Shown here in pieces: positions 27,128 to 41,590 of a DNA stretch of 64,000 bases. A program made the position numbers and the translations under genes. The stretch covers positions 64,001 to 128,000 of the forward strand of contig CAWFSF010000002.1 in assembly GCA_963818475.1 (NCBI GenBank), read 5' to 3'. How positions within the stretch are numbered: position 1 is the stretch's first letter; every line of letters begins with the position of its first letter. Under the pieces are notes generated by a model. The model saw only the letters and a list, made by a program, of their open reading frames with translations, was not told the DNA's origin and did not search any database. Origin of the DNA: Nitrospirota bacterium (GTDB taxonomy: Bacteria > Nitrospirota > UBA9217).

Positions 27128-29441
27128 CTAAGCCTTTTCCAGCTTCACTGCGCAGATCTTGTACTCCGGCTGTTTGGACAGCGCATCGAACGCGTCGTTC
27201 GTCAGGCTGTTGATCATTTTGTCGGGGTAGTGCATCGGAACGAAGACCAGTCCGTCGCGCGGCACATCGATGACCTTGGCTTCGAGCACGATCGTCCCGC
27301 GGCGGGACGTGAGCCGCACCTTGTCCCTGGACTTGACGCCGATCTTCGCCGCGTCCCGCGGGTTGATCTCAACGTAGGCGGCCGGCGCGGAGCGCTTGAG
27401 TTCGGGCACGTTGAGCGTCATGGTGCCGGTGTGCCAGTGCTCGATCTGGCGGCCTGTGGTGAGGGCATAGGGATACTCCGCATCGGGCGGCTCGGCCGGG
27501 CCCTTGTAGGGCCGGAGCCAGACCGTGGCCTTGTTTCCGTCGGCCTTGGCGCCGTAGAAGGAAACGTCCGCTGCCTGGGGATCGAACTTCTTCACCATGA
27601 CGTCGCCGTGTTTTGCGGTGTACCGGCGCTGCGTGCCCGGATGGTCTTCCGTGGGGCAGGGCCACTGGATGCCGTGGGCTTTTTTCATGCGCGCACGGGT
27701 CATTCCCATGAAGTCGTAGGCAGTGCCCTTCGAGCACTGACGGATCTCGTTCCAGACGTCCTCGGAGTTCTTGTGAGCGAACAGTTTCTTCCCTTCGTGC
27801 TCCAGATCGAGGGCTTTGAACAGCTTGTTCGCGAACTCGATCATCACGTCCAGATCAGGCCGCGCTTCTGCGGGCGGATTGATCGCTTTCTCAATATACT
27901 GATACCTCCGCTCGGACTGTCCGTAGGTGCCGTCCTTCTCCACCCAGAGCGCGGCGGGAAGCACCAGGTCGGCCAGTTCCGAGGTTTTCGTCGGATGGTA
28001 CGCCTCGGACACGACGAGGAAGGTGTCCTTGCCTTCCATGCCCTTCCGGTAGGCATCCACATTCGGCAGGCTCTGGCCGGGGTTGGTGCAGGCGATCCAC
28101 ATTGCCTTGATCTTGCCGGCCCCGAAATCGCGGAACATCTCGACCGCCGTAGGTCCGGGCTTGGGCTGAATGCGGCCAGCGGGCAGGCCCCAGAACTTCT
28201 CCATGTCCTCGCGGTCCTTCTCGTTTGCAACGAGCCGGCCGTAGGGCAGCAGATGGCTAAGAAGACCGCCGTCGCGCACACCGCCGCAGGCATTCGGCTG
28301 GCCCGTAAGCGAGAACGACGTGGCGCCGGGCCGGTTGATCTGGCCGGTCAGCAAATGCAGGTTGTGCATCATGTTGTTCACCCATACACCGCGGGTCCGC
28401 TGGTTCAGGCCCATGCACCAGAGGCTCATGGTCGCCTTGGACTGGGCGAACATGCGGGCAGCCTTGATGATGTCGTCCTTGGGGCAGCCGGAGATCTTCT
28501 CGGCCGCCTCGGGTGAGTAGTCCTCCAGGAACTTGACGTACTCGTTCCCAGCCGACCTTCTCGATCTTCGGCGGCGGCCCCGGGTCCGTCATCGTCTTGA
28601 AGACCGTGTACTTTTCCACATACTCCTTGCTGTACAGGTTCTCCTTCACGATCACGTGGGCCATGGAATTCAGGATCGCCAGATCGCTTCCGGGAATGAA
28701 GCTCATATGCATGTCAGCGATGCGCGCCGACAGCGTCTTCCGTGGATCGACCATGATGATCTTGGCGCCGCGCTTCTTCTGCTCGTTCACGATGCGGAAA
28801 ATGACCGGATGCGCCTCGGCCATGTTCGATCCGACGATAAAGAAGCAGTCGGCATGGTACATGTCGTCGTAGGCGCCCATGGGTTCGTCCTTGCCGAAGG
28901 TGGAAACGTAGCCCACGGCGGCAGAAGCCATGCAGAGACGGGGATTGCCGTCGATATTGTTCGTGCCGAGCCCGCCCTTGAATACTTTGTTGATGAAGTA
29001 GGATTCTTCGGTGTAGGCCTGGCCCGAGCCGTAAAAGGCCACAGACTGGGGATCTTTCCTGTAGGCTGCCGCGAACTTGCCGACCATGAGGTCCATTGCC
29101 TCTTGCCAGGAGATCTTGACGAACTCGTTGCCTTTTCGCAGCAGGGGATGCTTGGCCCGGTCCGGCGCGGTCAGGATGGCCGGCAGGAAATTGCCTTTGA
29201 GGCAAAGGAAGCCCTTGTTCCAGTTGTCCTTGTCTCCCTTGACCGCGACGACCTTGCCGCCCTTGACACCCGCGTACACGCCGCAGCCTGCTCCGCAGTA
29301 CCGGCAGACGCCCTTGACCCATTTATCGACGTCCGCTTCGGCCCCCATGAGCTCTTTCGGCAGGGCCAGGTCAAGCCCGATCGCGGACGCCGCGGCCAGG
29401 GCCGCTGAATACTTCAGGAGCTGTCTTCTGGTAATGTTCAT
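27128..29441 (-). CDS. napA: periplasmic nitrate reductase catalytic subunit; frameshift near 28546
   Basis: Tat signal TRRQLLK, CRYCGAGC..C cluster, PRLCMASA Mo-ligand Cys, LTGQPNACG, KQPEYKICAV. Confidence 0.93.
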
Positions 29442-40247: not shown

Positions 40248-40571
40248 ATGCCGAAACTGCCGAATCAATACCTCACGAACCAGAAGCGCTACAAAGGAGT
40301 GATGAAAGCACTGGAGAATCTGGGGAAAGCCACGAAGGCCGCCGGCCCGCTGAACAAAAAAACATCAGAGCTGGTCCAGCTCGCTGCAGCAGCCACGGTC
40401 CATTCAGAAGGCTCGGTGCATTCCCATACGCGGCGGGCGCTTGCCGCAGGCGCGAAACCCGAGGAGATTCGCCATGCCGTGGTCCTGCTCACCAGCACCA
40501 TCGGCTTCCCCTCCGTCTCGGCGGCGCTCTCCTGGGTCGACGATGTGCTAGAAAAGAAGCGGCTTGTTTAG
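40248..40571 (+). CDS. carboxymuconolactone decarboxylase (CMD/AhpD-like) family protein
   Basis: AAGGAGG RBS; AGPL..K..ELV.LA...SEGSVHSH.RRAL..GA..EEI...TIGFP. Confidence 0.88.
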   Translation: MPKLPNQYLTNQKRYKGVMKALENLGKATKAAGPLNKKTSELVQLAAAATVHSEGSVHSHTRRALAAGAKPEEIRHAVVLLTSTIGFPSVSAALSWVDDVLEKKRLV

Positions 40572-40613: not shown

Positions 40614-40728
40614 TCTCGCAAAGGCGCAAAGAGCGCAAAGAAAATCTTAAGTCACGGCTGGCCTTTGGTTTTAACCAAAAAAGACCTTGATCTAAGTTTC
40701 CCTTTGCGTCCTTTGCGCCTTTGCGAGA
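40614..40728. repeat. empty 9-nt-period inverted element (GCGCAAAG variant)
   Basis: TCTCGCAAAGGCGCAAAGAGCGCAAAG ... CTTTGCGTCCTTTGCGCCTTTGCGAGA. Confidence 0.85.
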
Positions 40729-40757: not shown

Positions 40758-41075
40758 ATGAAGATCGATATCTACATGGCCGAGATGTGCGGCTCCTATC
40801 ACCAGCTGCGAGAGAACCTCGAACGCGCCATTACAGATCTGAATGCGCCGACAGAGATCGTTTATCATACGGTCTATTACGATGAAGCCATAAGCAAAGG
40901 GATCAAAGGGTCGCCTTCGGTCTGGATGAACGGAAAAGACGCCTTTGAAGGCGGCAGTTCTGCCGGGATCATGTGAAGGACCTTTCTCGACGAGTCCGGG
41001 CGACTCATGGGCGTACCCTCAGTGGAGATGATGAAGCGCGCGATACAGCGGGAAAGGTCAATGCAAGGCATATGA
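40758..41075 (+). CDS. thioredoxin-fold selenoprotein (105 aa; Sec at TGA 40974-40976; DUF2703-like)
   Basis: N-terminal CGSY and GSPSVWMNGKD. The frame continues past TGA as RTFLDESGRLMGVPSVEMMKRAI. SECIS-like hairpin follows, and the final TGA overlaps the next ATG. Confidence 0.8.
40977..41010 (+). promoter_or_regulatory. bacterial SECIS-like element
   Basis: GAGTC-CGGGC-GACTC stem-loop (40992-41006); the G-containing loop starts 20 nt after the UGA. Confidence 0.7.
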
Positions 41076-41590
41076 AGCATCTCGTCTTCATAGGCGACTC
41101 ATTGACCGAATGGGGCGACTGGCAGCGCCGGTTCCCTGACTACAAAGTGACCAACCTCGGCATATCGGGAGAAACGGTCGAAGGACTGCTGGCCCGACGG
41201 GACCATCTTCGCGCCGCGGTCGAGAAGCCCAACTACATCTTCCTCATGACCGGCATCAACAACATCGCCGCAGAGCACTACGACATCATGGAACCGTACC
41301 GCGAGATCGTCCGCAACCTCACCACATGGTGCAAAAAAACAACGGTCGTGGTCCAGAGCATCCTTCCTGTTGAGCTGACCTGGATCAGTAGCGGCGTGAT
41401 CAGGGACGCCAACCGGCAGCTGGAACAGATCGCGAGGGAATTCAACGCGGAATATCTCGATGTCTATAGCCTCTTTGTGGATCAGACTGGCAGCCCCTTG
41501 AGCGCGTGCCTTCAGGATGATGGGGTGCACCTCAGCAGGCAGGGATATGAGGTCTGGACAAAAGCAGTGGACAGGTTCTTGAAAAAGTAG
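41072..41590 (+). CDS. GDSL/SGNH esterase-lipase
   Basis: FIGDSLT, GISGET, GINN and DGVH blocks. Confidence 0.9.
   Translation: MKHLVFIGDSLTEWGDWQRRFPDYKVTNLGISGETVEGLLARRDHLRAAVEKPNYIFLMTGINNIAAEHYDIMEPYREIVRNLTTWCKKTTVVVQSILPVELTWISSGVIRDANRQLEQIAREFNAEYLDVYSLFVDQTGSPLSACLQDDGVHLSRQGYEVWTKAVDRFLKK

Follow-up and report, generated by a model that had tools for sequence, protein, structure and literature searches.

The closest described relatives of the gene considered here belong to the DF family of (seleno)proteins. A "hypothetical protein DF" was predicted in Desulfosediminicola flagellatus by deep-Sep (mSystems 2025, PMC12013277), and the passages of that paper on DF report Cys homologs, but neither further TGA-containing homologs nor a conserved domain. 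A 2026 review lists DF with the model NF049942, in an entry that gives no motif (PMC13188914). No paper turned up in the literature that combines "DF family" with "selenoprotein", the printed name being "hypothetical protein DF", and the text of BSepDB mentions neither the DF family nor NF049942. Here we analyze a 64,000-nucleotide stretch from a Nitrospirota bacterium (the window; positions 64,001 to 128,000 of contig CAWFSF010000002.1, assembly GCA_963818475.1). Positions 40758-41075 of its plus strand very probably represent a single gene, which codes for a 105-residue thioredoxin-fold selenoprotein with selenocysteine (Sec) at codon 73. Judged by sequence comparison, the encoded protein is a divergent member of the catalogued DF family and belongs to a Sec-only clade, the members of which come mostly from Nitrospirota metagenome-assembled genomes (MAGs).

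The coding sequence starts with ATG 40758 and encounters an in-frame TGA at 40974-40976, which is codon 73. Past this codon, the frame stays open for 32 further codons (RTFLDESGRL...SMQGI) until a second TGA at 41073-41075. The latter is the predicted true stop and overlaps the start codon (ATG 41072-41074) of a downstream GDSL gene as ATGA. The full coding sequence thus consists of 105 codons plus stop, for a predicted product of about 11.8 kDa. An N-terminal Cys (Cys11, codon TGC at 40788-40790) is found within the motif C-G-S-Y. A candidate selenocysteine insertion sequence (SECIS) hairpin covers 40992-41006, where the peptide E-S-G-R-L is encoded. It consists of GAGTC (40992-40996), the loop CGGGC (40997-41001), and GACTC (41002-41006), and its loop begins 20 nt past the UGA. 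These features were noticed in a preliminary description of the window, which took them as a hidden selenoprotein gene, and their coordinates proved exact upon re-checking. It must be conceded that the open frame and the hairpin in the window sequence alone are within chance, which weighs against the selenoprotein when the window is viewed in isolation. According to our own estimate, a 32-codon open stretch after a stop is expected in about 1 of 4 cases at the base composition of the window. It is the comparison with related loci that lifts the observation well beyond chance, because the TGA and the downstream peptide are conserved, the variation is of the coding type, and synonymous sites in the hairpin are frozen.

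When the read-through product was compared to a protein database, 132 matches were obtained. Among the matches listed (120 of 132), each of which represents a 90%-identity database cluster, the length is 70-93 aa (mostly 72-74) and query coverage is just 63-68%; by this comparison, these database relatives are cut at the same codon as the window gene. Names given to some of them include "thioredoxin family protein" and "hypothetical protein". When species-representative genomes were scanned, 23 related loci emerged, nearly all from Nitrospirota MAGs. A TGA is present at codon 73 in 22 of these, with the same read-through layout, and is followed by the peptide U-R-x-Y/F-x-D-E-S-G-R-L-x-x-V-P-S-x-x-L-K. 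In total, 27-50 codons 3' of the TGA are conserved as protein among the related loci. The second stop of the homologs (TGA, TAA, or TAG) is located at codons 100-123, and beyond it conservation is absent. Mean pairwise differences at codon positions 1/2/3 are 0.34/0.25/0.55 downstream of the hairpin, as compared to 0.27/0.13/0.50 upstream of the TGA, and the downstream pattern carries the signature of translated sequence.

The sole related locus that is out of frame (L048, 33% identity) has a TGA at codon 49 and a TAA at codon 57. The locus comes from a long-read MAG and represents either a frameshifted copy or an assembly error.

Within the phylum, 301 genomes were searched. DF-like matches were found in 75 of them, including 45 of the 63 genomes from the family to which the window organism belongs. 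Exactly one in-frame TGA is present in 76 of the 88 DF-like matches, and none in the other 12. This differs from the DF protein of the deep-Sep study, for which the DF passages report no other TGA-containing homologs (PMC12013277). Only six phylum genomes have a DF-like match above the cut-off of NF049942.

These data bear on the alternative that TGA 40974 is an ordinary stop and that a 72-residue product is made, with the downstream frame and the hairpin being coincidental or serving, for example, as an attenuator before the GDSL gene. In a single sequence, frame and hairpin would indeed be within chance, and databases do list proteins of 72-74 aa. We nevertheless consider this alternative highly improbable: at 22 of the 23 loci, the peptide past the TGA is conserved, with third-position variation of the coding type; its counterpart is the C-terminal portion of full-length Cys homologs, which have Cys in the TGA column; and a product of 72 residues would be devoid of the last helix of the fold. 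The preliminary description had proposed to check whether Cys aligns with the TGA in homologs of the read-through product, and this is the case in the Cys forms.

The selenoprotein interpretation places the gene next to the DF family. The alignment of the window protein with model NF049942 ("DF family (seleno)protein") extends over residues 3-95 and takes in the complete model (positions 1-96 of 96). With Cys substituted for Sec, it scores 38.7 bits (31.1 bits in a six-frame genome search) and does not reach the cut-off of 70, which counts against the assignment. The suggestion that the family may already be catalogued is borne out, with the qualification that the score is below the cut-off. 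Members of the Sec clade score 31-57 bits against the 70-bit cut-off. Because the curated DF-family model misses the clade, most of its genes are filed as short fragments.

The window subfamily has in common with the DF family a size of ~100 aa, an N-terminal Cys, the cis-Pro loop G-S-P-T/S, the motif NG-x-D, the U/C-R-x-Y column, and the existence of Sec and Cys forms. It differs at the N-terminus, which is C-P-N/S in the DF family and E-x-C-G-S-Y-H/Y in the window subfamily, and by an extra conserved segment, D-E-S-G-R-L-x-x-V-P-S. In addition, each subfamily member examined is a Sec form. In an alignment of 42 sequences, which includes six members above the NF049942 cut-off (L050-L055), residues C11, S52, P53, G59, U/C73, R74, and P87 are invariant. 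The C-R-x-Y motif, which the preliminary description ascribes to small thioredoxin-fold proteins, is real in the Cys forms: upon translation of the best phylum matches, these read ...L-T/S-C-R-x-Y... at the position of ...I-M-U-R-T-F... in the window protein.

A profile search of 1.84 billion cluster representatives returned 4575 proteins at E ≤0.001 and 1425 at ≤1e-10, and the top matches are mostly full-length Cys forms of about 100-115 aa. Several DF Cys forms score above the cut-off (23.6 bits) of DUF2703 (PF10865), namely P0123 (31.1 bits), P0125 (25.7 bits), P0177 (25.3 bits), and L056 (24.2 bits). Conversely, the DUF2703 protein L064 (129 bits) also matches NF049942 with 51 bits, and its residues at the Sec column are C-R. 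The window protein itself has no match to PF10865 at E values up to 1, and DUF2703 proper, unlike the window protein, retains CxxC and further Cys clusters. We thus place the window protein in a Sec-only subfamily of the DF/DUF2703 thioredoxin-fold superfamily, with E-x-C-G-S-Y-H/Y as its N-terminal motif.

The best match in the profile search is P0122, the representative of a 50%-identity cluster. With 105 aa, it is a full-length relative of the Sec clade and has Arg in the Sec column (F-S-R-R-R-F-Q-D-E-S-G-R-L). A change of one base, from TGA to CGA or AGA, would yield Arg. A genuine replacement of Sec by Arg and a sequencing variant are both conceivable.

The candidate SECIS element can be compared to the model for bacterial SECIS elements quoted in the 2026 review: a loop of 3-9 nt, a stem of 4-16 bp, a G in the first two loop positions, a distance of 16-37 nt from UGA to loop, and a minimum free energy (MFE) of -7.5 kcal/mol or lower (PMC13188914). 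With a stem of 5 bp (GAGUC/GACUC), a loop of 5 nt (G at position 2, followed by another G), and a spacing of 20 nt, the hairpin from the window is within all geometric limits of the quoted model. When 40 sequences were analyzed by RNAalifold, the 5-bp hairpin was the only consensus structure. Pairing is retained in 98.5% of 200 cells, as compared to 7-48% when the partner is slid by 1-3 columns. The GG in the loop (G34, G35) is invariant (40 of 40 sequences), and the flanking loop positions vary freely, giving a loop of the form NGGNN.

Codon usage is highly restricted within the hairpin. The Glu codon is GAG in 36 of 36 sequences; of the 40 sequences, 38 have CTC and 2 have CTT for Leu, the other four Leu codons never being used; and the third base of the Arg codon, which pairs with U31, is always a purine. 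Third-position diversity is 0.11 within the hairpin versus 0.50-0.55 alongside, and for the adjoining conserved V, P, and S codons all synonyms are in use. What variation exists in the hairpin is one-sided and keeps the pairing (G-C to G-U, A-U to G-U, U-A to U-G). On the sequence data, the freezing of synonymous sites is a stronger argument for the hairpin than the structure statistics.

A number of results speak against the hairpin. Two-sided compensatory base-pair changes are absent from its alignment, and there is no covariation signal, with 500 of 500 shuffles reaching the observed value; because of this, the support for the hairpin is one of conservation only. The hairpin is moreover encoded by the conserved peptide D-E-S-G-R-L, so that constraints on protein and on RNA are partly confounded. 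Its MFE is -6.0 kcal/mol for the hairpin alone, -7.0 kcal/mol in 39 nt, and -14.9 kcal/mol in 60 nt, which is no better than for dinucleotide shuffles (z values of -1.09, +1.36, and +0.81). The hairpin is thus weak, and the energy threshold of -7.5 kcal/mol is reached only when 60 nt are folded. In summary, the proposed SECIS hairpin stands with respect to its geometry, its frozen synonymous sites, and its being the sole RNAalifold structure, but it lacks covariation, and its energy is within that of shuffles.

A candidate compensatory change in L045 was rejected: its columns show that the register of the hairpin has moved by one position and that the loop is GGCC. In the outlier L069, the hairpin is kept with a shifted register. 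L050, which is above the NF049942 cut-off, has a different peptide at the hairpin site, where, according to our reading of the sequence, a 5-bp hairpin with a GGG-containing loop is possible.

If UGA is decoded as Sec, the genome should encode the required machinery, as had been predicted, and all of its components were found. A tRNA-Sec with anticodon TCA scores 63.2 bits and thus above the cut-off. The genes selA and selB are adjacent (C6:1736324-1739560; loci L011 and L017), and selD is located at C6:2120012-2120939 (L021) and itself encodes Sec (motif SCAGUASK). The genome also carries further TGA-containing genes that resemble formate dehydrogenase.

TGA is the commonest stop of long open reading frames in the genome (937 of 1906). 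Because TGA is the commonest ordinary stop and also terminates the selenoprotein gene, we consider the genetic code not to be reassigned. The least probable of the alternatives is that the UGA is read as an amino acid other than Sec, be it by near-cognate Trp or Cys read-through or under a reassigned code. In its favor, the Arg of P0122 in the Sec column implies that the position tolerates other residues. In addition to the stop usage in the genome, however, TGA ends 14 of the 23 read-through products (that of the window and 13 of 22 homologs), tRNA-Sec, selA, selB, and selD are present, the hairpin fits bacterial SECIS geometry, and the Cys counterpart in homologs is the classical Sec/Cys signature.

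A more serious alternative accepts the selenoprotein gene as true in the clade and assumes Sec decoding to be defunct in this organism, with selA, selB, and selD being pseudogenes and only the 72-residue product being made. Indeed, selA and selB are split over many frames in this assembly, and the frame of selD is broken once, close to the C-terminus, which argues against functional decoding here. The intact rpoC (about 4 kb) shows that errors are not spread evenly over the assembly. Sequencing runs were searched for the selAB region, and the best run contained 0.15 of the sampled words.

The selAB region was also compared to short-read contigs of relatives from four studies. Among the differences listed, there are 11 extra single bases and 1 missing base in this assembly; another 37 indel rows exist besides these, and the contigs, being from relatives, show difference rather than error. 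The extra bases are outside long homopolymers, and the amino-acid sequence within each frame piece is well preserved. Bacterial pseudogenes tend toward base loss and gained stops. The one-sided excess of insertions instead resembles unpolished long-read sequence, and isolated frame splits occur in other genes too. Furthermore, the selenoprotein gene, its hairpin, tRNA-Sec, and the other TGA-containing genes are intact. Because the insertions are one-sided in otherwise well-preserved coding sequence, an unpolished assembly is favored over gene decay. We thus consider the frame breaks in selA, selB, and selD to be probably local assembly errors, and defunct decoding to be improbable. Overall, the conserved TGA, the conserved downstream peptide, the Cys homologs, the hairpin, and the Sec machinery bear out the initial interpretation as a hidden selenoprotein.

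Two formate-dehydrogenase-like genes deserve a separate remark. A formate-dehydrogenase-alpha-like (molybdopterin oxidoreductase) gene is encoded in the window on the minus strand (27143-29309; C2:91143-93309), where the model is matched in two pieces (model positions 2-238 and 240-671). The pieces are in different open frames without stops, and this split is due either to a frameshift or assembly error or to the presence of two genes. A second such gene (C2:353269-355276) is also split and has in-frame TGA codons.

The structure of the read-through product was modeled by AlphaFold2 with the 42-sequence alignment, resulting in a mean predicted local distance difference test (pLDDT) score of 90.9 and a predicted template modeling (pTM) score of 0.83. 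The model comprises β1 (2-7), α1 (14-28), β2 (33-38), α2 (41-47), β3 (54-57), a short β4, and α3 (89-103), and thus predicts a thioredoxin fold. In agreement with this, the profile matches the thioredoxins 1fo5 and 1nho, with Cys11 at the position of the first Cys of the CxxC motif (CPHC in 1fo5) and Tyr14 at that of the second. The window protein shares the β-α-β-α-β-β-α fold and the cis-Pro loop with small thioredoxins (MJ0307, PDB 1fo5; MTH895, PDB 1ilo; Thioredoxin_3, PF13192). It differs from these in having C-G-S-Y instead of CxxC, with Tyr replacing the second Cys, and in a 27-residue insertion between β4 and α3 which contains Sec73-Arg74. The score of PF13192 on the window protein (24.8 bits) equals the cut-off (24.8), and the match covers only residues 1-65. 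A Foldseek search against PDB gave no match at an E value of 0.001 or better, with only weak matches to thioredoxins, and no solved structure of the family was found by sequence search.

In thioredoxins, the β4-α3 loop and the cis-Pro loop border the active site. Because the former borders the active site, a pair between Cys11 and Sec73, as suggested in the preliminary description, is plausible, and the invariance of both residues in 42 sequences and the alignment of Cys11 with the first Cys of CxxC are consistent with it.

Following the established bacterial mechanism of Sec decoding, SelB with Sec-tRNA(Sec) would bind the GAGUC-CGGGC-GACUC hairpin, the loop of which begins 20 nt past the UGA. 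Selenocysteine would be inserted at codon 73, and translation would continue for 32 codons to the TGA that overlaps the GDSL start. In the resulting protein, Cys11 and Sec73 would form a two-residue thiol/selenol site. This site might cycle via a selenenylsulfide, the protein then being a dedicated redoxin, or it might bind and pass on soft metal(loid)s such as Hg or As. That the two residues act together in one of these ways is a tentative proposal which we hold with slightly less than even confidence, and we do not rank the two options. The more specific idea that the domain uses selenium to relay soft metal(loid)s, as a "selenol metallochaperone/redoxin" in the chemistry of Hg or As, is rather unlikely.

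Leads to the function come from domain fusions. Sec forms with an N-terminal, TGA-containing DF-like domain are fused to a MerB-like alkylmercury lyase domain (PF03243, 103-104 bits) in L072, L074, L075, and L079, relatives from the same phylum with proteins of 330-377 residues. On these MerB-type fusions, the SaoL model NF040728 scores 90 bits, which is under its cut-off of 140 bits. Across the phylum, open frames of 330-377 aa contain 12 of the DF-like matches. Cys forms above the NF049942 cut-off are fused to thioredoxin-type ArsC (L051-L055), and a MerC-like membrane part is attached to one Cys form. Among 20 long representatives, chosen by length among the top 150 profile matches, MerT is found in two (159 and 54.6 bits), MerC in four (two of them above the cut-off), HMA in two, a second thioredoxin domain in two, AhpC/TSA in one, and an ABC-2 permease in one, and five have no Pfam match. 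For the related DUF2703 family, the part of the Rhodococcus study considered here describes a gene in an As(V)-induced ars cluster and proposes DUF2703 as a thioredoxin partner of ArsC (PMC6514093).

The principle of the relay can be illustrated by mer systems. Their soft-metal relay domains, NmerA and MerP, are small, have two thiol ligands and a ferredoxin-like HMA fold, and are found with MerT, MerC, or MerB. DF-type domains are likewise fused to MerT, MerC, HMA, and MerB. The fold differs, being thioredoxin-like in the DF domain, and the parallel is limited to the principle of operation.

Other results weigh against a metal-related role at this locus. Neither MerB nor pI258-type ArsC was found in the genome, which is 91% complete; in the case of MerB this is a weak negative, as the MerB control matched no control genome. 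Unlike in mer systems, mer genes are absent next to the window gene, and its local neighbors (CMD, GDSL, methyltransferase) are not metal-resistance genes.

Two of these neighbors recur at related loci. Upstream, a cysteine-free AhpD/CMD-like protein of 107 aa is encoded at 40248-40571 (plus strand, from ATG 40248; PF02627, 62.3 bits). Such a gene is upstream in 8 of 23 loci, with 72-84% sequence identity across loci (L028, L032, L033, L036, L038, L043, and L047 were compared), and the protein is more conserved than the adjoining selenoprotein. AhpD-type proteins have a CxxC...H motif, and at its position the CMD-like proteins have the invariant motif SEGSVHSH. The downstream gene (41072-41590, plus strand) codes for a GDSL/SGNH hydrolase of 172 aa (PF13472, 81.3 bits). 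A GDSL gene is downstream in 13 of 23 loci, and a Zn-ribbon thioredoxin 2 gene in 5 of 23.

Translational coupling between the selenoprotein gene and the GDSL gene had been proposed from the ATGA overlap. The overlap is present in the window, but among the 12 loci with a placeable GDSL start it was encountered in just 2, namely in the window and in L026, its closest relative. At the remaining loci, the two genes are 49-326 nt apart or have another gene between them. Coupling is thus possible in the window, and the overlap is lineage-specific rather than conserved.

A palindromic element is located between the CMD gene and the selenoprotein gene (40614-40728). Its two 44-nt arms are separated by 27 nt and show 82% complementarity. 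Across the genome, 29-30 copies of the arm motif are found, most of them arranged in inverted pairs with a spacing of about 80-160 nt, and the element belongs to a dispersed repeat family that resembles repetitive extragenic palindromic (REP) sequences or miniature inverted-repeat transposable elements (MITEs). In L028, the gap between the CMD gene and the selenoprotein gene is only 22 nt. Rfam had no match anywhere in the window at gathering thresholds, and a scan for promoters and terminators revealed nothing exceeding shuffles.

The gene does not represent a new kind of system, given that the DF family was catalogued in 2025, and from the broader perspective of selenoprotein biology, a Sec/Cys pair in a redox fold is nothing unusual; its novelty is modest but useful. 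It uncovers a systematic annotation gap. Gene callers cut the genes of the Sec clade at the UGA, and the products are filed as hypothetical or thioredoxin family fragments, which applies to the relatives among the matches listed and to most matches in 75 of the 301 phylum genomes. The only published description of the family reports, in its DF passages, a single Sec member and neither further Sec homologs nor a recognized domain (PMC12013277). To this we add a Sec-only clade of considerable size, the assignment to the thioredoxin fold, the connection with DUF2703, and fusions to MerB, MerT, MerC, HMA, and ArsC. The fusions provide a testable functional lead toward the handling of mercury and arsenic. 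If the relay proposal were true, the Sec-only clade would constitute a widespread, so far unannotated module for detoxification or trafficking, encoded either as a fusion to MerB or stand-alone beside the cysteine-free AhpD-like protein and a GDSL hydrolase; the stand-alone form would then provide, in trans, the reactive pair missing from the AhpD-like protein.

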